Below, piece by piece: positions 14,913-47,589 of a DNA stretch of 64,000 bases; position 1 is the first letter of the stretch; each line of letters opens with the position of its first letter. Origin of the DNA: Chiloscyllium plagiosum (taxonomy: Eukaryota); NCBI RefSeq assembly GCF_004010195.1, contig NC_057718.1, positions 44,045,809 through 44,109,808 on the forward strand, given 5' to 3'. The position numbers and the translations under genes were made by a program. The notes beneath the pieces were generated by a model that was not told the origin of the DNA, made no database searches, and worked only from the letters and a program-made list of their open reading frames with translations.

Positions 14913-15512
14913 TGATTCATTCAGTTTTTTTCTCAGATTCCATCCAAGTTTGTGACAAAATAACCAATGTTGTACTGCCAAGTCCAGTTACATCTACTGC
15001 TTTGATATTTCCTATCCTACTGAGCAAATAAATCTCGCAATGGTTGTTTGACTGAAAATATCACAGCTGAAATTCATAACAAAATAGAACATATTCACTA
15101 TCAACTCATTGCTAATATTCCATCCTTGAGACGCCTGCCCTAGCATTCTGGTCAAAAACTGATCATACTCATCTCATTTGTGCTAGGGAGGTCTAAGCAT
15201 CTGTTAGATTTAGGATCTGAACCTGCAGTGTCAGGTTTGTTAAGCGAGCATTTCCATAACTCATATTTGCAGTTATATTTATTTACTTTGTGTTTTGTGT
15301 ATAATAATGTGTACTACTGCCACAATGATTTAGGTTTTCTCAGCATTTAAAATAGTGGAGTGAAATAAATATAAATGTTTTGATAAAGATATTGCTTCTT
15401 TGAGAACAATCTGGCATTAAAACTGACAGTTGCTGCACTGTAAAATAAGTTTATATTTCACTGACGTGTATGAAAGACTTTATCAATGTGAGTTGGTGTA
15501 ACTTCTTTGCAG

Positions 15513-15845
15513 GTTACTTGGCAAGCTCCTTTGATGATAAATTGTGAAATCCTTCTTTTTGAAATTTCACATGCCTGATCCACACATCAGAATTGTGAAT
15601 ACCTCATAGTATGCTGCAATACATTGGGCTGGATCTATTCCCTTTTACCAATTATTCAGTAATGATTGTTATTTGCACCAGTGGTGGAGATTTGTAGGTG
15701 GTTGCACTGAAAGTTTGCCAACTGGAGTGATTACTCACCCCACAGTTCCTCAGGGTATTAGCTCTTTGGTTGTAAACCCTGTTAATGAGTCATTCATTAG
15801 TGTTTCATGGCAGCATCTCACAGGGCCAAATGGACCTAATATAAG
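15513..15845 (+). pseudogene. USH2A: USH2A exon (about human exon 42), three frameshifts
   Basis: Acceptor cttctttgcAG (15511-12). Reads VTWQAPLMINCEILLFEI / HMPDPHIRIVNTS / SMLQYIGLDLFPFTNYSVMIVICTSGG / FVGGCTESLPTGVITHPTVPQGISSLVVNPVNESFISVSWQHLTGPNGPNIR across three frame switches. Recalled human sequence: VTWKPPLIQNGDILSYEIHMPDPH...PFTNYSV...GGCTESLPTYVTTHPTVPQ...SWQPPSKPNGPNLR. The expected donor reads AG|GCATT. Confidence 0.93.
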
Positions 15846-17882
15846 GCATTATTTTACCACCCATTCATGCGGGTTCTTGAGAATTGTCCGATTAATATTT
15901 CAAAGCAATATTTTCAGAGCCATATTTGAATGATTCTGCTTTTTCTAAAAAAAACCTCAAATGTCATCAATCATAAGAGATGACCAATAGATCAAGAGAT
16001 ACAATGGAGAAAATTTTAATCTGAATGGTCTTATAACAGGCAAACTGCACTTGCCACTTGGCTATCATCATCCTCATGAGGCTTTACTTATTTTGAAGCC
16101 TGAACCTCAAACAAGAGTGGCCTCGAGCACTGTACATGTCACTCCTGTTGCTTTTGCTGAGTGCTGTGAGTCAAATGTTTGTACTGAGCTGGGTTTTCAT
16201 CCTACAGGCAAGTTGTGACAATTGGAAGTTTCCAGCCTTAGTCTATCAGCCTCAGGAGAAAGCTCCTGCAAAGTGGGGTTGTCATTCTGTGGATATGGAG
16301 GTATATTGGGATCAGTTCCTGAATAGAATTCACTTGACAGCCATAGGGGCTATTAGGTGCAGAGGCTCTGCTCAAAATTGGTTTGAGACTTTGTCCCGTC
16401 AGACTTTGTCATCCATTACACAGTTCCTCTGACCCTTTATGATGACCAGTGTTCCTCCCATGGCTCCTCATTCTCTTGATGCCAATCACTGTAAGATGAA
16501 TCCTCACCACAGCTCACCATGTTGTATGAACATTCTGGTAGATTTGCTGTCACCATGCGTCTTTTTTGGCATGGATTGACATGGCTTGTTTGTTCCAACG
16601 TGGTAGAGAAAAATTATTTAGTATTCTGACAAGAGTTTCTGTCATAACTACATGTAGCTTATTACATGATATTTGTAATGTGCAATTTAATTTAATATGA
16701 TAGATCATCTTTACATGGAGTATGAGGTAGACCCAGATAGCAGGTCTTTTTCCTTTGAGAACCTAAGTTATTTTCCCAATAAGTCCATATGACATTATCA
16801 TTTTAAAGGAACCCTTTGGCATTAACCCTTTCAGAGGCCTATGGCACTCTTCAACATTAATTCTTTCAGACTTCTAACCCTTATACAATGTTAACAAATG
16901 ATATTTCCATATCCATCCAGCCAGTATACATTCTGTACAGAAACTTCTGGTAACAATGTCTTGTGTGCTAAAGCATTATGAAAAATCATTCATTCATAAC
17001 TTTCTGGGAAAAAGAAAACTGCTTTTACTACAGCCCTGTAAAAAATTGTCAATCCAGCAGACCCTTAAAATATTTATAGCAGACACTGCAAACACTTGAC
17101 ACCCTTATCTTGTGTAAGCAACCACTGAGCAATGCAGAAATAGATCAAAGAGAAAAATCTATCAAATAAGCAATGATTTTCCTTGTTTTCTCAATCGGCT
17201 AATGAAAGTCTGGGCTGTGAGTTAAGAATGCATAACTAGCCTTTAATTAATTTAGAGATGTTTTGCATTATCCATAAATGTTCCAAATGTGCACCAGTAA
17301 GAACTTTGGTACAAACTGAAGTGCAAATTCAGATACAATTTATTTCAACATCAGGATTACAGTGATAGAAAGATGAGAAACTCAGATTAACCTCAGTTTA
17401 ACCAGTAAAAAATATTTTACTGGTCCTTGTCTAGTTATCCAGGATTGTCAGGCTTATATTGATGGGTTCAGTCCTTCAAGCAGTCAGATAAGTGCTCTAG
17501 CAAGTTCATTAAACAAACATGACTGAGGGTTGAAATAAAGCTCTCTGGGTTTCAAACCTTTGACTGCAATGGTAGAATATAAGGCTTTTAGCTTGGGATC
17601 ATCCAGCTGTGCTTTAAGAATGTTCATTGCTTTATGGAGTTCATATTTGCATTTTTAACATTATAGTTTTATGTAATATCAATAAAAATAACCTATGTAA
17701 TATAACATATGCATAATTAAAACCTAAATATTTTGTTAATACTATTCTGATACATAAAATTAAAGTTACAATTTAAAAAGAAAACAAAAATAAAATGTGT
17801 TAAATTTATATTTTTCTAACAATTATCAGTTGTTAGGAGCATTGGGTTTAATAATCATATTGTACAACCTGTGGTTTTTCAG

Positions 17883-18005
17883 ATATGAGTTGCTAAGGCA
17901 CAAATCCGAACAACCACTTGCATCAAATCCCCCTGAAGATTTAAATCTTTAGCTGAATATTTACTCAGGGACACAATTGTACTATGAAGATAAAGGTCTT
18001 AACAG
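17883..18005 (+). pseudogene. USH2A: USH2A exon (about human exon 43), in-frame TAG
   Basis: tttttcAG|...|GTtag, 123 nt. Reads YELLRHKSEQPLASNPPEDLNL*LNIYSGTQLYYEDKGLNR versus recalled human YELLRRKIQQPLASNPPEDLNRWHNIYSGTQWLYEDKGLSR. TAG at 17950-17952 replaces Trp. Confidence 0.95.
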
Positions 18006-21000
18006 GTTAGATTAAACTACATCAGCTTCAAACAAATTATGATTTGATTAGCAAATTAGTTAATAAGTACTGGGTTTCTGCTTTTCAGCATTTGTAATGT
18101 TTTGAACAACTACTTGTTGTATAAATGTATTTGGATTAAAATTAAACTGATCGACGTTTGTTTGCTGTTCTTAGAAGCTATCCTCACCTTACAATGATTT
18201 TGTTTTCCAGCCATATTCCATTATGAAACAATTTATTTGTATATAAGCAAAGTATGTTGTATTTTGAAACTAACAAACATCAAATATATGCAACGTGTCT
18301 TTTTGTTCCACATCATCACATTAAAATATAATTTAAATGCAACACACTCATGTTTTATGGATCTGTTAACACGATATGGGATGAATACTTGCAATGCTAG
18401 GCAACAGTCATTGAATACAACTTACTTCAAATTAATTTATGTTACAAGAAGAGTGGAAAATGTAAAGTCCTTTTCCCCTTCGTTGGCTTTAAATCAAACT
18501 GATGTATAATGTTTCTTAAACAATGGTAGCACGGATAGTTAAAAAGGGAAGAACTCCTGAAAAATAGAGATCTGACAATTCCAAATAGCCCTTTAGAAAA
18601 TGAGTGCATGGAAATCCTTTTTGTTGAATTATTATTTCTGTTACTAGGACATTACTAGGAGAATGTTGCTGACTGTGGTTAACAGAAGATGAACTAGAAT
18701 TCCATCAATCAATGTGTTGTGGCCAGAAATGTGACAAATTTCTGATAATTGTTGAGATTCAGCTCTGATTTCATATAACCAAACTTCCCCTGTTGCTCCA
18801 ATTAAAGTTATTCTTAGAACTGAAGCTTATCATCCACATTGTTAATGAGGTGTGTCATTGTAAACTGCTTTTCATTATTTGGGTAAGCATTTGCAATCTA
18901 TTTTCACTTTACAAGTTGATGATTATTAAAGGATAGAACTGCAGAAGTTAATCATCTAATAAAAAGGACTTTGGTAAAAGGAATATGTTTTCATTGCAGT
19001 CATTCATATATTATAAATCCTACATCCCAATTATGAATTAGATCATGATTCTATTTTGTTTTTGTGCTATATGGAGATTCCTACAAGTTAGAATGGAAGA
19101 ATTTAACTATAAGTTTTCAAAATTTGATTGTCAGTATTTCCTTCAAATTCCAAATAGTTATACAGAATTATCATTTTCTTTAGCATCTGTTTATTTATTT
19201 CTCTTTTTTTCATGTATCTTTTCCAATATATATGCTGTAACGCAATTTAGGTTTGTCAGTCAGGCTTATAGTATAGCACACTTGTGCATATTGGGAGCTA
19301 CATATCTTAATACGCAGAGGCTTATTCTTTGTAGACAGAAAGAACATGCAATTACATTGTGCCTGTTTCAATGTAACCACAGAGGCAACAGCCATTCTTC
19401 CGTTTATTCCTCAAGACAATGTTTTAGCCAATTAGTGTCAACTTGATTTTTAAAGAAATCTTGGAAATTAACTGCCAATTATCATATAAATGGTACATTC
19501 TCCATTGGCTGTACCAATGAGAGTCACTTCACATCCAATGGCACCCTGTTCTCATACAACATAACAAAATGATTTCCCTCTTTATATTAGTATCCTTGTA
19601 AACTATCCAGATCAGCATAAGACGAAAACTATAATCAAGCTCTGTGCTACTAAACAACTACTTGTTTCAGCAAATTTTAAAAATGTTACAATTGGCATTT
19701 GTAAATTTGTTTTTTTTTGCTCTTCTTTCAATCATCTTTCTGCCCTCTTCATTTCTCTTTTTGGTGTCATTGGCTGGACCAGAATTTATTGCCCTTGCAA
19801 ATGTGGTGGAGACCTGCCTGTTGGACCACTGCATTCCATGTGCTGAGGTATACCCACTGTCACTGGGGAGGGAATTTCAGGATTTTAACCCAAATATGTT
19901 ATGCAATTGCGATTGCACTTTTCCCTGTTAAAATTATCTCCCTAATTTTGGACTTATTTTCTCTACCTTTGCCTTTTTAGCTATTTAGTCTATCAAACTT
20001 CAGTCTTAGCATTTAGAAAATACATTTGCCCTTCATAGGACTTGCACATTTGCTAGGGCAATAACATTCTTAGGTTCCTTTTGAAATAATAGTTAACCTA
20101 TTTGTTTCTTCCTCTGCAAGTTTAGGTATATTTACATGCTGATTTTGCTAATCAATCAGCTTTGACATTCTTTTTAATATTATTAATTTCTTACATACTT
20201 TTTCTTAGCTACATAAGTTTTCATTGGAAATTTTTCATTGAAAAATTAATTGGGCCAGTAAGCTGTCAGAATAACTTTCTGTCATAAAAGACAGGGGGAA
20301 AGTATTATTATCCCCACTAACTGAGGCAATATTATTCTGACTCAGAAGTGATTTATCCGCTGAGATGCCACAATCAGTAAAGCCTGTTATTACTCAATAG
20401 ACAGTGGCTTATTAATTTCTTTAAGTAAATAAGTTTATTATATATATCTGACCAGAAGAAGAGAAAAAATATCACTCTTTAAAAAGAATTCTGATATTGG
20501 GTACCCTTGCTTTTCATGAGATTTAATACATTGGGCTCTTATGCTATTTGATTTAATGATCATAATTAAAGCAAATATTTATTTATCTGTCAAACGATAA
20601 CTAAGCAAATATTAATGGGGATTGCCTATTGTTGTTTTCATAGTAGGATATTTAATTTTGATTTTTTAATTTGAACGATCACTGAAAAGCAGTTCATTAT
20701 TAAGGTACTTTATAATTATAATGTGTTTAAAACATTCACAATTATTTTACTTTCTGCATTATTTATGAACTAAAAATTGTCAGTTGTAAGTTAATTTATT
20801 TACTTTAACACTAATATTCCTCTTTTCTGAGTTTGAACTGAATTCCAGTTCTATACAGATAATAGGCATTCTCATCCAAGTGGATCACCTTCAAATTTGA
20901 ACCTATTTCAGAAGGCTAGTCGATAAGAAGACCATTCTGTCATAGACCATGTATTCCGAGTCCAAACTTTAGCTGCCCCAACTGGAATTAGCTAACTGAA

Positions 21001-21289
21001 ATTGACCAGGGTTGGTTTCCTGATGCTGCTGTTCTTCACATCCCAAGTCCTCAGTATGAAAATTTGCCTTTGGAGCACAAGTATCCATTTTGTACAGAAC
21101 AATTAATCTAAAGACTGAGTTACAAGGGAGTCAGTAGCACATCCAATGGCGCCGATGATGATATAAATTGCTAGACTGAAGCTTAAGCAGCTTAATGCCA
21201 AGCTTGACATATCGGAACATGAGCAGTTCATTGAGTCTGCTTCATCATTCATTGCCCAATATCTCTTAATGCCTTTGAATAGAAACATT

Positions 21290-21585
21290 CCCAGATTTAA
21301 CATTCACAAGTGATTGAACATCCAAACTTATGCCAACTTTTCTGGGTAGAAATGTTTCCTAATTTGAGTCCTGCATGGTCTACCTGAAATGCTTGAACAA
21401 AACCACTTATTCTAGCATCGACAACTGGTGGAAATAATTTAGCTCTATCTATCATATCGCTTTTCTTTAATAGCTTGAAACTTTCAATCAAATAAGACCA
21501 TAAAATCTTAAAATGTGGGAGCAGAATTCAGGCATTTGGCCCATTGAGTCTGCTCCACTATGTAATCATGGCTGATAAGTTTCTC
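21290..21585 (-). mobile_element. Old CR1 3' fragments
   Basis: IESFKLLK..D.IDRAKLFP (ORF 21297-21491) and an adjacent 3'UTR/tail piece (21495-21585). Confidence 0.65.
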
Positions 21586-21586
21586 A

Positions 21587-22370
21587 GTCGAGATGTACTG
21601 CTGGAAAAGCAGGTCAAGCAGCATCCAGGGAGCTGGAGAATCGACCTTTCAGGTATAAGCCCTTCATCAGGAATGAAGCTTGTGGACCGGGGGNNNNNNN
21701 NNNNNNGTCGGAGAGGAGGGTGGAGTAGATAGGTAGGAAGGAAGATGGACAGGAGGACAAGTCAAGAGGATGATGCTGAGTTGGAAGGTTGGGACTGGGA
21801 TAAGGTGGGGACAGGGAAATGAGGAAACTGGTGAAATCCATATTCATCCTGGTGTGGTCGCAGGGTCCCAAGGTGGATGATGAGATGTTCTTCCTCCAGG
21901 CGTCGGATGATTAGGGTTTGGCAATGGAGGAGGCCCAGATCTGCAGTGTCCTTGGTGGAGTGGGAGGGGGAATTACAGTGTTGGGTCACTGGTGGAGTTT
22001 GTTGGTGCGGGTGTCCCAGAGATGTTCTTTGAAATAATCCACAAGTTGGCGTCCTGTCTCACCGATGTAGAGGAGACCCCATCGGGAGTAATGGATATAG
22101 TAGATGACGTGTGTGGAAGTACAGATAAATTTCTGTCGGATGTGGCAGGATCCTTTGGGGCCTTGGACAGAGGTGAGGGGGGAGGTGTGGGTACAGATTT
22201 TGCACTTCTTGCGGTTGCAGTGGAAGGTGCCGGGAGTGGGGTATGAGCTGGTGGAGGCGCGTGGATCTGACAAGGGAGAGAATGGTCACTCTAAAATGCA
22301 GATAGGGGTGGGGAGGGAAACATATCTCTCCCCACATATGGTGGGGTCTGTTTGTAGGTGGCAGAAGTGA
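21587..22370 (-). mobile_element. Penelope-like element 3' part: GIY-YIG endonuclease plus terminal repeat; contains a small N gap
   Basis: PGTFHCNRKKCKIC...FICTSTHVIYYI..SRWGLLYIGETGRQL...KEHL followed by RRLEEEHLIIHLGTLRP. The terminus matches the fold-back inserts at 4281, 6973 and 61525. Confidence 0.93.
21638..21675 (-). ncRNA. Minimal hammerhead ribozyme motif (mutated) in the Penelope terminus
   Basis: Minus strand cattc-CTGATGA-A-GGGC-ttat-ACCT-GAAA-GGTC-gattc. Confidence 0.65.
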
Positions 22371-22389
22371 CTTTGATGGTCAGCAGGGT

Positions 22390-23338
22390 TTTGTGCAGGG
22401 AGGTCTTGTGGAAAAATGTGAGTTTTTGCAGCTTGACAGGAATAACAGATTAACTGAACATTGGTTCAATGGGAAGAGACAGCAAAAAGCAGCAACACAG
22501 AGGGATTTTGGGGTTCTTCATGGATGGATCACAAAAATCTATAATCTAAATTCAAGGGATTATAAATGGACTCTTGGCCTTTATTTCAAAGGGAATGTAG
22601 TATGAAAGCAGGGAAGTGTTTCTCAAACAAGGCACATGACACAACACAGTTGAAATATCATGATCAGTTTTGGTCCCCTTATCTAAGGAAAGGTATTATT
22701 TCCATTGAAGGCAGTCCAAAGATTAAGCACGTTGAACCTGCTGATAGAGAGATCTTCTTATGAGGTTGGGTCTGCACTCACTAAAGTTTAGGAGAGTGGA
22801 GATAAGGGTTGTATGATTCTTAGAAAATTTCACAGAGTAAATGCAAAGATGTTGTTTACTTTTGTGGGTCTCTAGGACCAGAGGATATAACCTAAGAGTA
22901 AGGGGTCAGCCAGTTAAGTCAGAGATGAGGAGGATTTTTTTTTCTCTCAGTATATAGTCAATCTGTGAAATTCTTTACCACAGAGGGTTGACCTGGCAGT
23001 AACTCTGTGGTTACTGTTCCTGTCACCTACCAGCTCACCCTGTAGCCTGGCTATAATACAATGGGCTGCAGGCCAGACTCAAGCACCCTGCCTAACTTTG
23101 AACCAATGGAAGCCCTTTACTGGCCAATTAATGCCCACTGTCCACCTGACTGCTGTTTCTCAGCATATTAAAGGCTGAGATAGATATTTAATCAGTATGA
23201 GAATCAATGGTTATGGGAATAAGCAGGAAAGTGGACTTGAGGATTGTCAGACCAGCCATGATCACATCAAAAGGTGAAGCAGACTCAGTGAGCTGTATGA
23301 CCTACTTCTGTTTCTCTGCCTTATAGCCTTATGGTTTG
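22390..23338 (+). mobile_element. Old CR1 3' portion, interrupted by a 164-bp insert
   Basis: VEKCE, QRDFGVL and QFWSPYLRK motifs, then a 3'UTR and cttatagccttatgg tail. Confidence 0.82.
23001..23164 (+). repeat. 164-bp direct duplication, copy 1 (the inserted copy)
   Basis: Ungapped match to 24191-24354 with 7 mismatches by eye. Confidence 0.95.
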
Positions 23339-24142
23339 AGTGATGTGGAGTAAAAGATTAACTATACCTTTTTGTCTAATAATTGCTACTGACCATGTGC
23401 CTAAGGAGTTATGTCATAATGATATTAACTTACTTGGAACTGGGACCCAAGACTGTAGTGCTCATGAGATATCCTCAGTTATCACCCCACATGTACGTCA
23501 GTGCATAATAAACCCTACTCATGTCTACTTGCCTGAATGCAGTCTTGATCTTACTGGAGCCTTGGACTCAGCAAATAATAGTGGCCTGAGCAAAGCATAC
23601 TATATATCAGCAAGCTACCTTGACCGTTCTCCTCCACCTCTTCCTCTCCCCACCTACCAACCTCAAAATTCTGGAATTTGTTCATATTTAGTAACTTGCA
23701 TGTAACACTGCAGCTAGAGTTTCCCAATTTCTGTTCCATACGGATCTATTTATTTGGTAGTTTACAAGCTTCCAGAAGAGGGCATATTTAAATTAAAGTA
23801 CTTTCCCCTAATTACTCTGTATCCATGAAGGATATTGCTGATGCAAAGGCCAGTTTATGTTCATATGTGCATATAATGTAAAACAGTGTAACAAATATTT
23901 TAGAGTAGCTTGTAATCCTTTTTAAATTAAATAATTAATCCAATATTTAATTTAGAACCAAAGGGGATAGAAATAATGGATAAAATATAAGATGAAAGAA
24001 CCTCCTTAATAATCTGGCAAAGCTCCATGGAGTCATAATCCTCGAACACAATCTCCAAAGAGCCATAAGTTATATAATTCTATGAATATGGTTTGACTTA
24101 GCTTGAAATAAAATGATGTTGTATTTGATAGATACAAAGCAT

Positions 24143-24618
24143 TGGACAGAATTTCTGGTCCCCTGGTATGCCAGTAGAAAGGGCCTATAAAACTCTGTGG
24201 TTACAGTTCCTGTCACCTACCAGCTCACCCCCTAGCCTGGCTATAATACAATGGGCTGCAGGTCAGACTCAAGCACCCTGCCTAACTTTGCACCAATGGA
24301 AGCCCTTTACTGGCCAATTAATGCCCACTGTCTACCTGGCTGCTGTTTCTCAGCCTGATGTTTGAGGTCAACAATGGAATGCAATTCTGGAAAGTAGGTC
24401 AGCTCGGGCCTTGAGTACGAAAGGGAGGAGTGTTTCCTTCAAGTGTTATTTGCCATTCAGATGCCTACTGGCCTCTCCCCTCCCCCCAACTGTTCCCACA
24501 TCCACGTCTTTTCTCTCCCAGGTGTGGTCTCCACATCAGACCTGTTTATCCTGATTCCTGCTCCCCATCATTCAGTGCTCAAAGCAAGAAACCCCAGCCC
24601 CTGTCAAATCCTGCCCAT
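24143..24618. mobile_element. Possible old MITE-like element
   Basis: Imperfect terminal inverted repeats tggacagaattt / aaatcctgccca around a GC-richer body. Confidence 0.4.
24191..24354 (+). repeat. 164-bp direct duplication, copy 2 (the likely source)
   Basis: Matches 23001-23164 and lies inside a longer old repeat. Confidence 0.95.
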
Positions 24619-24763
24619 TGTTTAACTTAGATGCTTACAGTTAAAATTTTATGAACAAAATACAATCTTCTTTGCTATTTTTAGTAAATGTTAATTACTC
24701 TATGAGGGCTAGTCAGCCTTGATCGTTTATCAAATGTCATTTTTTGCTCTTTTTAAATTAAAG

Positions 24764-24966
24764 CTTTGTGAGAATTGGAAGGAAATGTGGAATATTACAT
24801 CCTGTATATCAATTCAACTTCCTATCGAGACTTTGTGTTATCCAGCTGATGTGAACCATCCTTTGATCGATGATTTGCATTCAAATGCAGATATTTTTCA
24901 CTGAGGTCTTCAATGGAATCCATAGTGCTATGAGCAAGGTGGTGCAGGGGACAATGTCTGATGGGG
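24764..24966 (+). pseudogene. USH2A: USH2A exon (about human exon 45), nonsense codon plus two frameshifts
   Basis: AG at 24762-63, donor GTtagt at 24967. Reads L*ELEGNVEYYILYINSTSYRD / YPADVNHPLIDDLHSNAD / IFFTEVFNGIHSAMSKVVQGTMSDG versus recalled human VQDLQGEVEYYTLF...PDVNSHVIGHLKPN...IFISVFNGVHSINSAGLHATTCDG. TGA at 24769-24771. Confidence 0.9.
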
Positions 24967-29794: not shown

Positions 29795-31549
29795 GGGGCT
29801 ATCAAAGACACTATTGAGTGTCCTTGATAAGTATGTACCCGTCAGGCAGGGAGGAAAGGGTCGTGTGAGGGAGCTGTGGTTTAATAAGGAATTGGAATCC
29901 CTTGTTAAATGGAAGAGGGCGGCCTATGTAAAGATGAGGCGTGAAGATTCAATTGGGGCGATTGAGAGTTATAAGGTAGCCAGGAAGGACCTGAAGAGAG
30001 AGCTAAGAGCAGCAAGAAGGGGACATGAGAAGTCCTTAGTTGGTAGGATTAGGGAAAACCCTAAGGCTTTCTACAGGTATGTCAGGAATAAAAGAATGAC
30101 TAGGGTAGGAATAGGTCCAGTCAAGGATAGTAGGGGGAAGTTGCGTGAGGAGGCGGAAGAGATTGGGGAGACACTGAATGAATACTTTTCGTCAGTATTC
30201 AATCAGGAACAGGACATTATTGTCAATGTGAATACTGAGTCACAATTAAGTAGAATGGATGGCTTTGAGGTATGTAGAGAAGAGGTGTTGGAAATTCTGG
30301 AAAGGGTGAAAAAAGATAAGTCCCCTGGGCCTGATGGCATTTATCCTAGGATTCTCTGGGAAGCAAGGGAGGAGATTGCAGAGCCATTGGCCTTGAATTT
30401 TATNNNNNNNNNNNNNNNNNNNNNNNNNNNNNNNNNNNNNNNNNNNNNNNNNNNNNNNNNNNNNNNNNNNNNNNNNNNNNNNNNNNNNNNNNNNNNNNNN
30501 NNNNNNNNNNNNNNNNNNNNNNNNNNNNNNNNNNNNNNNNNNNNNNNNNNNNNNNNNNNNNNNNNNNNNNNNNNNNNNNNNNNNNNNNNNNNNNNNNNNN
30601 NNNNNNNNNNNNNNNNNNNNNNNNNNNNNNNNNNNNNNNNNNNNNNNNNNNNNNNNNNNNNNNNNNNNNNNNNNNNNNNNNNNNNNNNNNNNNNNNNNNN
30701 NNNNNNNNNNNNNNNNNNNNNNNNNNNNNNNNNNNNNNNNNNNNNNNNNNNNNNNNNNNNNNNNNNNNNNNNNNNNNNNNNNNNNNNNNNNNNNNNNNNN
30801 NNNNNNNNNNNNNNNNNNNNNNNNNNNNNNNNNNNNNNNNNNNNNNNNNNNNNNNNNNNNNNNNNNNNNNNNNNNNNNNNNNNNNNNNNNNNNNNNNNNN
30901 NNNNNNNNNNNNNNNNNNNNNNNNNNNNNNNNNNNNNNNNNNNNNNNNNNNNNNNNNNNNNNNNNNNNNNNNNNNNNNNNNNNNNNNNNNNNNNNNNNNN
31001 NNNNNNNNNNNNNNNNNNNNNNNNNNNNNNNNNNNNNNNNNNNNNNNNNNNNNNNNNNNNNNNNNNNNNNNNNNNNNNNNNNNNNNNNNNNNNNNNNNNN
31101 NNNNNNNNNNNNNNNNNNNNNNNNNNNNNNNNNTATGAGGACAGGCTGAGGCACTTGGGGTTGTTTTCATTGGAGAAAGGAAGGTTTAGGGGTGACTTGA
31201 TAGAGGTGTATAAGATGATTAGGGGTTTAGATAGGGTCGACAGTGAGAATCTTTTTCCACGTATGGAGTCAGCTATTGCAAGGGGGCATAGCTTTAAATT
31301 AAGGGGGGGGTAGGTATAGGACAGATGTTAGGGGTAGGTTCTTTACTCAGCGAGTCGTGAGTTCATGGAATGCCCTGCCAGTAGCAGTGGTGGACTCTCC
31401 CTCATTCTGGGCATTTAAGCAGGCATTGGATAGGCATATGGAGGATAGTGGGCTAGTGTAGGTTAGGTGGGCTTGGATCGACGCAACATCGAGGGCCGAA
31501 TGGCCTGTACTGCGCTGTATTCTTCTATGTTCTATGTTCTATGTTCTAT
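29795..31549 (+). mobile_element. Young 5'-truncated CR1 LINE (ORF2) spanning an assembly gap
   Basis: Open frame ...ENPKAFYRYV...LNEYFSSVF...KSPGPDGIYPRIL, then the N gap, then YEDRLRHLGLFSLEKGRFRGDLIEVYK, a 3'UTR and a (TTCTATG)n tail. Confidence 0.95.
30404..31133. other. Assembly gap
   Basis: Run of N. Confidence 1.
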
Positions 31550-40570: not shown

Positions 40571-41760
40571 AAGGATAGACCAGATCTAAAAGTTGAAGTT
40601 ATAAATTGGAGAAAGGACAATTTTGACGGTGTTAGGCAAGAACTTTCAAAAGCTGATTGGAGGCAGATGTTCGCAGGTAGAGGGACGGCTGGAAAATGGG
40701 AAGCGTTCATAAATGAGATAAGGAGAATCCAGAGAAAGTATATTCCTGTTAGGGTGAAATGAAAGGCTGGTAGGTATAGGGAATGCTGGTTGGGTAAAGA
40801 AATTGAAGTTTTGGTTAAGAAAAAGAAGGAAGCATATGTCAGGGATATACAGGAGAAATCAAGTGAAGCCTTAGAAGAGTATAAAGGCAGTAGGAGTATA
40901 CTTAAGAGGGAAATCAGGAGGGCAAAAAGGGGGCATGAGATAGCTTTGGTAAAGAGAATTAAGGAGAATCCAAAGGGTTTTTACAAATACATTAAGAACA
41001 AAAGGGTAACTAGGGAGAAAAAAGGGCCCATCAAAGATCAGCAAGGCGGCCTTTGTGTGGAGCCACAGAAAATGGGGGAGATACTAAATGAGTATTTTGC
41101 ATCAGTATTTACTGTGGAAAAGGACATGGAAGATATAGAATGTAGGGAAATAGATGGTGACATGTTGAAAAATGTCCATATTACAGAGGGGGAAGTGCTG
41201 GGTGTCTTGAAACGCATAAAGGTGGATAAATTCCCCAGGACCTGATCAGGTGTACCCTAGAACTCTGTGGGAAGCTAGGGAAGTGATTGCTGAGCCTCTT
41301 GCTGAGATATTTGTATCATTAATAATCATAGGTGAGGTGCCAGATGACTGGAGGTTGGCTAACATGGTGTCACTGTTTACAAAGGGTGGTAAGAACAAGC
41401 CAGGGAACTATAGACCAGTGAGCCTGACATCGGTGGTGGGCAATTTGTTGGAGGGAATCCTGAGGGACAGGGTGTACATGTATTTGGAAAGGCAAGGACT
41501 GATTAGGGATAGTCAACATGGCTTTGTGCATGGGAAATCATGTCTCACAAATTTGATTGAGTTTTTTGCAGAAGTAACAAAGAGGATTGATGAGGGCAGA
41601 GCAGTAAATGAGATCTATATGGACTTCGGTAAGGCATTCGACAAGGTTCCCCATGGGAGACTGGTTAGCGAGGTTAGATCTCATGGAACACAGGGAGAAC
41701 TAGCCAGAACTGGATACAGAACTGGCTCATAGGTAGAAGACAGAAGGTGGTGGTGGAGGA
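40571..41760 (+). mobile_element. CR1 ORF2 internal segment (linker plus RT N-terminal half)
   Basis: ENPKGFYKYI...LNEYFASVFT; PGNYRPVSLTS...SQHGF..GKSCLTNLIEFF...YMDFGKAFDKVPH. Confidence 0.95.
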
Positions 41761-41915: not shown

Positions 41916-43380
41916 CAGCCAACAATGGCCTAACCAATGTCCTATGTAGCTGCAACATGACCTCCTTACTCCTGTGCTCAACACTCTGACCAATAAAGGA
42001 AAGCAAACCAAATACCTTCTTCACTATCCTAACTACCTGTGACTCCACTTTCATGGAGCTATGAACCTGCACTCCAAGGTCTCTTTGTTCAACAACACTC
42101 CCCAGAACCTTACCATTAAATGTACAAGTCCTGCTAAAATTTGTTTTCACAAAATGCAGCACCTCGCATTTATCTGAATTATATACCATCTGACACTTCT
42201 CAGCCCATTGGCCCATCTGATCAAGATTCCGTTGTAACCTAAGGTAACCCCTCCTCTCTTGCCTCCCTTTCTATCCTTCCTGATAGCATTTGTATCCTGG
42301 AACATTAAGCTGCCAGTCCTGTCCATCCCTGAGCCATGTTTCCGTAATTGCTATGATATCCCAGTCCCATGTTCGTAACCATGCCCTGAGTTCATCTGCC
42401 TTCCCTGTCAGGTCCCTTGCATTGAAATAAATGTAGTTTAATTTATCACACCTACCTTGTTCTCTGCTTTATCCCTGCCTGCCCTGACTGTTTGACTTGC
42501 TTCTATTGTCAACTGTACCAGTCTCAGGTTGATCTCTTTCCTCACTATCTCCTTAAGTCCCACCCTTCCCCCCACCTTACTAGTTTAAATCATCCTGAGA
42601 AGCTCTAGCAAATCTCCCTGCCGGTATATTAGTCCCCTTCCAATTTAGGTGCAATCCGTCCTTTTTGTACAGGTCACTTCTACCCCAAAAGAGATTCCAG
42701 TGATCCAAAAATGTGAATCCTTCTCCCATACATCAGCTCCTCAGCCATGCATTCATCTGCTCTATCCTCCTATTCCTGCCCTCAGTAGCTCGTAGTACCT
42801 GGAGAAATCCAGATATTACTACTCTCGAGGACCTCCTTTTTAAATTCCTGCCTAACTCTCTGTAATCCCCCTTCAGAATCTTAACCTTTTCCCTCCCTAT
42901 GTCGTTGGTTCCAATGTGGACAATGACTTCCTGCTGGCCCCCCTCCACCTTGAGAACATTCTGCATCCTCTCTGAGACATCCTTGTTCCTGACACCAGCA
43001 AAACACCATTCTGGTTTTTCATTGCTGGCCACAGAAACGTCTGTCTATACCTCAGGCTAGAGAATCCCCTAACACAATCAATCTCTTGGAACCCAATGTA
43101 CCTCTCATTGTATTAGAGCCAGTCTCAGTACCAGAAGCTTGGCTTTTCGTGTTACGTTCCCCTGAGAATCCATCACCCCTTACATTTTCTAAAACAGCAT
43201 ACCTGTTTGAAATAGGGATAGCCACAGAAGACTTCTGCATTAACTGCCTACCTCTATGACCGTTCTGGGAGTTAACCCATCTATGTGACTGTATCTGCGA
43301 TGTTTCCCCCTTCCTATAACTGCTATCCACCACATCCCCTTGCTCTTGTAAATTCTTCATTGCCTCTAACTGTCTCTTGT
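41916..43380 (-). mobile_element. Internally deleted CR1 LINE (ORF1 esterase, ORF2 start, RT C-terminal piece)
   Basis: IPISNRYAVL, LIVLGDSLA and VIVHIGTNDIG...VVISGFL (SGNH); an endonuclease start near 42430; then WAEKCQM.YNSDKCEVLHF...QRDLGVQVH. Confidence 0.92.
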
Positions 43381-44789: not shown

Positions 44790-44992
44790 AGCCTGAAGGC
44801 ATACTACCTCCAGAGGTCAATGTGATCAATAGTACAGCTGTTCATGTCATCTGGACATCACCATCAAAACCAAACAGTCTTGTCACCGAATATTCTATTC
44901 ATGTGAATAAAAAGCAGCATAATACAGATATGCATTTACCCGGGCCTTTTATATTGACAGACCTTTATCCATTTACTGTATATAAGATAAAG
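44790..44992 (+). pseudogene. USH2A: USH2A exon (about human exon 46), reading frame open
   Basis: tttatAG|...|GTagga, 203 nt. Reads (E)PEGILPPEVNVINSTAVHVIWTSPSKPNSLVTEYSIHVNKKQHNTDMHLPGPFILTDLYPFTVYKIK versus recalled human EPQGMLPPEVVIINSTAVRVIWTSPSNPNGVVTEYSIYVN...LSPFTIYDIQ. Confidence 0.95.
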
Positions 44993-47476: not shown

Positions 47477-47589
47477 ATTGAGGTATGCATACTATATGGC
47501 TACACTAAAAGCAACAATACCCAAGTCACCACCCTTGAACATAAACCATTTAATATAGCTGCACCTCATATACATGTCATGAAGTCAAG
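47477..47589 (+). pseudogene. USH2A: USH2A exon (about human exon 47), reading frame open
   Basis: aattAG|...|GTaagt, 113 nt. Reads IEVCILYGYTKSNNTQVTTLEHKPFNIAAPHIHVMKSR versus recalled human VEVCTIYACVKSNGTQITTVEDTPSDIPTPTIRGITSR. Confidence 0.92.

Follow-up and report, generated by a model that had tools for sequence, protein, structure and literature searches.

Does a USH2A gene whose reading frame is broken three times within one exon still encode the long form of usherin? The question is raised by positions 15513–15845 (+ strand) of the 64-kb stretch of DNA analysed here (the window), which lies inside USH2A, with both ends of the gene outside it. An earlier note on this DNA had described three separate frameshifts in a single USH2A exon and had preferred prolonged neutral decay to sequencing error as their cause. 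Our analysis bears out the frameshifts and favors the same cause, and we conclude with high confidence that the inactivation of long usherin is real, old, and shared; the locus is most likely a unitary pseudogene.

The exon was characterized using tblastn, a frameshift-aware alignment, an alignment of 14 orthologues, and its splice sites. It is a spliced USH2A (usherin) exon of 333 nt that ends at 15845, with an AG acceptor preceding 15513; it is colinear with residues 308–417 of catshark usherin (81 of 114 aligned positions are identical) and contains parts of two fibronectin type III (FN3) repeats. We designate it the exon 42 equivalent, applying to the exons in the window the numbers that we take to be those of human exons 42–47. 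The pieces of the broken exon have no match in Pfam. The number of residues over the exon is the same in all eight of the chondrichthyan orthologues that were aligned, sharks and a chimaera included, and each has an intact frame; from the equal residue counts, the expected length of the exon is 329 nt. The marmoset, chicken, and turtle proteins have two additional residues over the exon, which fits the 335 nt given for the human exon. The earlier note had set 333 nt against 335 nt for human; its count and its statement that the frame is not restored are correct, but the proper baseline is 329 nt. The net change is thus +4 nt, that is, the frame is unrestored whichever baseline is used, and compensating frameshifts are rejected for this reason.

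The alignment with catshark usherin identifies the frameshifts as +1, +4, and −1, with the switches in frame near 15565, 15607, and 15690 and the stops at the positions previously reported. The first (15564–15567; this and the following features are on the + strand unless otherwise stated) is an extra T, at about 15565–15567, that extends a run of two T's to three; reading from the start of the exon, the first stop is the TGA at 15576–15578. The second (15607–15616) adds 4 nt at about 15607–15614, where a TAG is located at 15607–15609; 7 nt are present where the orthologues hold one codon, the result of either a single +4 event or two +2 events. The third (15689–15690) removes 1 nt from a glycine codon, and the TAG at 15695–15697 is located in the frame that is abandoned. 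The TGA at 15576 and the TAG at 15607 are the first stops of frames 1 and 2, and the TAG at 15695 is in the third frame. None of the indels is located within a run of four or more identical bases (such runs occur at 15556, 15643, and 15738), in agreement with the earlier claim that long homopolymers are not involved.

Two points are to be added to the earlier note: the second frameshift amounts to +4 nt, and, as the note had overlooked, the splice donor at 15846–15847 in the window sequence is a noncanonical GC (GCATTA) instead of GT. We infer that the ancestral donor of the exon 42 equivalent was GT. In a related species (organism B, ~2.8% diverged), the first base of the donor is A (15846 G>A), so no usable donor is present there. 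A transcript that splices in the exon 42 equivalent meets a stop after 21 codons. Three other readings were considered and rejected: the 107-residue open frame at 15610–15933 is not a gene, its start being out of the usherin frame and its end entering the intron; the sole stop-free GT that could serve as a cryptic donor gives 31 nt and the wrong phase; and skipping of the exon 42 equivalent alone (329 nt) breaks the frame.

Contigs from four sequencing runs were compared with the window over positions 15300–18200; two of the runs, designated X5 and X13, cover the indels. The other two, X2 (the same organism) and X19 (a third organism, C), have no contig over the exon, which carries no weight either way since contigs can be filtered out. 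In X5 (the same organism, from another study), one contig covers 15525–16041 with no gaps and two substitutions. In X13 (organism B), one contig spans 15300–18200; 81 of 2,901 bases differ from those in the window, and all 36 gap letters are outside the exon (at 15947, 16048–16060, 16208, 16334, and 17710). All three indel sites are ungapped in both runs, and no run that covers them lacks the indels; reads without the indels were what the earlier note had named as contrary evidence. Because a separate study of the same organism and a second species both show the three indels, the indels are not sequencing errors, and they predate the split from organism B. Their presence in two species points to fixation, though contigs hide rare alleles. 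Two other observations were made over this region: at 17710 the window is without 12 intronic bases that are present in X5 and X13 (either deleted in this sequence alone or lost in its assembly), and a short dispersed repeat at 16489–16556 drew many contigs in all four runs.

The damage is not confined to one exon. Five colinear exons on the + strand, spread over 32 kb, match residues 308–686 of catshark usherin; two of the four found in addition to the exon 42 equivalent contain lesions, and one more exon was not found. Counted over the window, the lesions are five frameshifts, two stops at orthologous codons, the GC donor, and the exon that was not found. The exon 43 equivalent (17883–18005, 123 nt; alignments and splice sites) has a premature TAG at 17950–17952 that replaces a Trp conserved in all 14 of the orthologues aligned. 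The exon 45 equivalent (24764–24966) is 203 nt instead of the expected 210 nt, with a TGA at 24769–24771 and deletions of 2 nt near 24838 and 5 nt near 24893. In both the exon 46 equivalent (44790–44992, 203 nt) and the exon 47 equivalent (47477–47589, 113 nt), the frame is open and the splice sites are canonical; the former matches Pfam fn3 and is 77% identical to other sharks (85% among them), and the latter is diverged (63% vs 85%), with one invariant Cys altered. The lengths of 123, 203, and 113 nt are those that we take human exons 43, 46, and 47 to have. The exon 44 equivalent (54 residues) is expected in the interval 18006–24763, where neither tblastn with six orthologous segments nor an HMM scan gave a match; with a 13-N assembly gap (21694–21706) in this interval, the loss of the exon is a possibility. 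Tblastn with orthologous segments and an HMM scan detected no further usherin exons in the window.

The orthology of these exons is indicated by best matches that are to usherin and not to other FN3 proteins and by the conservation of exon order, lengths, and phases. The two database matches of the exon 46 equivalent (among six candidates) are both usherin-type (75% and 63%), one a catshark protein and the other a mammalian usherin; in the PDB, it has no usherin match, and the best matches are weak ones to other FN3 proteins (E 7e-5 or worse). A processed pseudogene was rejected, the exons being separated by introns of 2–20 kb with splice sites. Other features of the window include a 164-nt direct repeat whose copies (23001–23164 and 24191–24354) lie 1,190 nt apart and are 96% identical, within the interval expected to hold the exon 44 equivalent; two intronic LINE-like fragments, one at 41220–41732 (+ strand) with a piece of a reverse transcriptase (Pfam RVT_1) and the other at 42733–43044 (− strand) with an esterase-like piece (Lipase_GDSL_2 and OSK, below the cut-off); other repeat-like frames, seven of the nine tested having no Pfam match; and, in addition to the 13-N gap, a gap of 730 N at 30404–31133.

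The translation obtained by reading through the lesions was compared with intact usherins over 312 columns free of gaps. This read-through is 71–75% identical to seven sharks, which are 84–95% identical among themselves, and 69–75% identical to chondrichthyan usherins overall. All 17 of the relative-rate comparisons show an excess of change in the window (p of 0.01 or less), and 39 of 198 residues that are invariant in chondrichthyans are changed in the read-through, vs 2–10 of 200–208 in leave-one-out controls with intact sharks. The amino acid branch leading to the window is 0.251 substitutions per site, compared with 0.086 on average for five galeomorphs whose usherin is intact. The decay is uneven. 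Taken exon by exon, the excess reaches significance in three (p values of 0.013, 0.00008, and 0.004), including the exon 47 equivalent (9 vs 0 unique changes, p 0.004), and not significant in the exon 43 equivalent (2 vs 1) and the exon 46 equivalent (9 vs 4, p 0.27); for the exon 43 equivalent, identity to other sharks is 92%, against 94% among those sharks. That exon is well kept despite its stop, with 1 of its 33 invariant residues changed, a matter of chance or of a second constraint on the DNA.

In the exon 42 equivalent, the window differs from organism B by 9 listed changes (up to 11) in 333 nt, and in the rest of the compared stretch, which includes one 123-nt exon, by 72 (70) in 2,568 nt (Fisher p 1.0 (0.48)); the divergence is 2.7–3.3% in the exon and 2.7–2.8% in the flanking DNA. 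The nine listed changes are six nonsynonymous and three synonymous (pN/pS 0.60–0.74), a count that is compatible with an omega of 1 and rejects an omega of 0.1 (p of 0.01 or less) but not of 0.2–0.3 (p 0.055–0.25). As a rough estimate that depends on the assumed omega and a constant rate, the neutral period is ~5–8 times as long as the period that has elapsed since organism B diverged. Taken together, the lesions in neighboring exons, the approximately threefold longer branch, and an exon that diverges at the rate of its flanks support prolonged neutral decay; with the indels present in a second species, the preference in the earlier note for decay over sequencing error is upheld.

In which lineage did this occur? 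In a tree that contains no sequence from a ray or carpet shark, the read-through is located, on a long branch, among the galeomorphs, with the best position as sister to mackerel and ground sharks. The AU test retains three galeomorph placements (p 0.92, 0.135, and 0.135) and rejects positions as sister to all sharks (p 0.008), with the squalomorphs (p 0.008), and with the chimaera (p 1.5e-5); the SH test does not reject the first two of these (0.10). The host is most likely a galeomorph and probably a carpet shark. Models of full-length usherin (5,221–5,330 residues) are present in seven species of cartilaginous fish, i.e., Cetorhinus maximus (P0084), Carcharodon carcharias (P0199), Mustelus asterias (P0085), Scyliorhinus canicula (P0086), S. 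torazame (P0206), Heptranchias perlo (P0211), and Callorhinchus milii (P0209); a partial model from Pristiophorus japonicus (P0006) is intact over the region. These usherins have the same exons in the same order as the window; however, the reading frame is uninterrupted in them and broken in the window.

Usherin is conserved in animals as far apart as sea anemone, molluscs, and mammals; among 81 matches, the best 120 of 271, and 22 cluster members, none is a long usherin of carpet sharks, bullhead sharks, rays, or skates. A sawfish protein of another family does occur in the collection that was searched. For rays, skates, and bullhead sharks, long usherin was unseen though other cartilaginous fishes top the lists; further losses are possible. 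Outside the cartilaginous fishes, the usherin of the Pyrenean desman (Galemys pyrenaicus, P0002) appears degenerate: it contains insertions of unrelated sequence and departs from other vertebrates at conserved positions. Either the gene model is poor, or this mammal of weak eyesight may carry a pseudogene.

The explanation that we favor is that the USH2A locus would no longer encode the long (transmembrane, about 5,200-residue) usherin. In an ancestor of the shark represented by the window, one earlier inactivating event would have relieved the locus of selection; the three indels, the change in the donor, and the stops in neighboring exons would then have accumulated as late neutral damage, with the indels older than the split from organism B and the period of decay perhaps 5–8 times older than that split. 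Three marks of a unitary pseudogene are present, i.e., inactivating mutations in two species, intact orthologues in seven species, and a long amino acid branch.

Other explanations were weighed. The window is not free of defects: it contains N gaps and, at 17710, differs from X5 and X13, so the indels might be sequencing or assembly errors; however, two independent runs, one of them from another species, match the exon gap-free across all three sites, where no long homopolymer is found, and the probability of such an artefact is practically nil. It is very unlikely that the window contains a dead duplicate of a USH2A gene that is intact elsewhere in the genome. An intact copy less than 85% alike, or one removed by a filter, would escape the comparison of contigs, but a single contig per run was found on the exon in both X5 and X13, the five exons are colinear and separated by long introns, and the searches described above returned no long usherin from a carpet shark. 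In frame skipping of the damaged exons to give an internally shortened usherin is attractive for a modular protein built of FN3 repeats, and joint skipping of the exon 42–46 equivalents (1,029 nt) does preserve the frame; it is nevertheless highly improbable, since skipping of exon 42 alone or of exons 42–43, 42–44, or 42–45 is out of frame (with lengths for exons 44 and 45 that we presume from the protein alignment), and the exon in which translation would resume, the exon 47 equivalent, is itself strongly diverged.

A further alternative refines the pseudogene explanation instead of opposing it: only the middle of the gene would be dead, and a short secreted isoform (human exons 1–21) and/or a tail-only membrane protein that binds whirlin and PDZD7 would survive. 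A short secreted isoform is described in mammals (PMC8417766), and the cytoplasmic tail of usherin alone is reported to bind whirlin and PDZD7 and to form condensates with whirlin in vitro (PMC10039067); the in vitro binding makes a tail-only remnant plausible. With the C-terminal 267 residues of catshark usherin as the query, 136 matches were obtained, of which 10 were looked up. For the whale shark (Rhincodon typus, a carpet shark), only a short C-terminal model was found, a 134-residue ‘usherin’ (P0221) annotated on a 92.6-Mb contig, that retains the transmembrane segment and the C-terminal DTQL motif; it fits a loss of the long form, although it covers a part of the gene other than that in the window and may also stem from a failure of annotation. 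We regard it as sequence evidence that may weakly support a tail-only remnant. However, ~70 residues of the cytoplasmic tail are missing from this model, and it changes faster than intact sharks (over 108 columns, lineage-specific changes of 14 vs 4, 10 vs 4, and 9 vs 2) and may therefore represent the longest frame still open in a relic. On balance, survival of the gene ends is possible but is not what we expect. The ‘usherin-like isoform X2’ of the caecilian Rhinatrema bivittatum (P0219, 222 residues) has only the membrane segment and tail, which may mean that the ectodomain was lost independently or that the annotation is split; USH2A transcripts are reported in caecilian jaw tissue (PMC12771924). 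A broader proposal, speculative and in our judgment doubtful, is that the carpet sharks as a whole lost the giant ectodomain and kept a small membrane-anchored tail with a PDZ-binding motif that would still scaffold whirlin and PDZD7, with the same reduction perhaps independent in the caecilian and with rays perhaps also lacking long usherin. If true, it would amount to a naturally occurring minimal usherin in animals with sight and hearing.

Long usherin is described at the ankle links of hair cells and the periciliary membrane of photoreceptors together with ADGRV1, whirlin, and PDZD7, and truncation of the protein gives rise to Usher syndrome type 2A, an inherited deaf-blindness, in people and to defects of the retina and of hearing in zebrafish (PMC8417766). 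Human truncating alleles and ush2a null lines of zebrafish lose long usherin by premature stops, as the shark appears to have done; however, as described in the same source, the loss in these species leads to retinal degeneration and hearing defects, whereas the loss in the shark appears fixed in wild species. In the cavefish Sinocyclocheilus anshuiensis, Ush2a is described in the context of hearing with two amino acid changes and not with shared frameshifts like those in the shark (PMC4698820). The reported losses of noggin1 in elasmobranchs (PMC10869764) and a shortwave opsin in cartilaginous fishes (PMC12361510) involve different genes and belong to the same class, i.e., an orthologue that is dead in one lineage with lesions shared by relatives. 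We found no report in the literature of a loss of USH2A in sharks, although the supplementary gene-loss tables of shark genome papers could list one, and no paper on USH2A in the whale shark; in the paper on the sensory genome of the catshark (PMC11979771), USH2A is absent from the main text. The loss of USH2A in sharks thus seems unreported; pseudogenization itself is an ordinary mechanism.

Judged from the published function of usherin, the lineage would have no usherin ectodomain at the ankle links of its hair cells or at the periciliary membrane of its photoreceptors and would build its hair bundles and photoreceptors without the long form. A shark lineage of at least two species without long usherin would be a natural knockout, with catsharks and mackerel sharks as intact controls. 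It would make testable whether the ankle links and the periciliary membrane complex can be formed without usherin and whether ADGRV1, whirlin, and PDZD7 have decayed with it; and, by indicating which part of usherin is truly needed, it may bear on the design of mini-gene and exon-skipping therapies.
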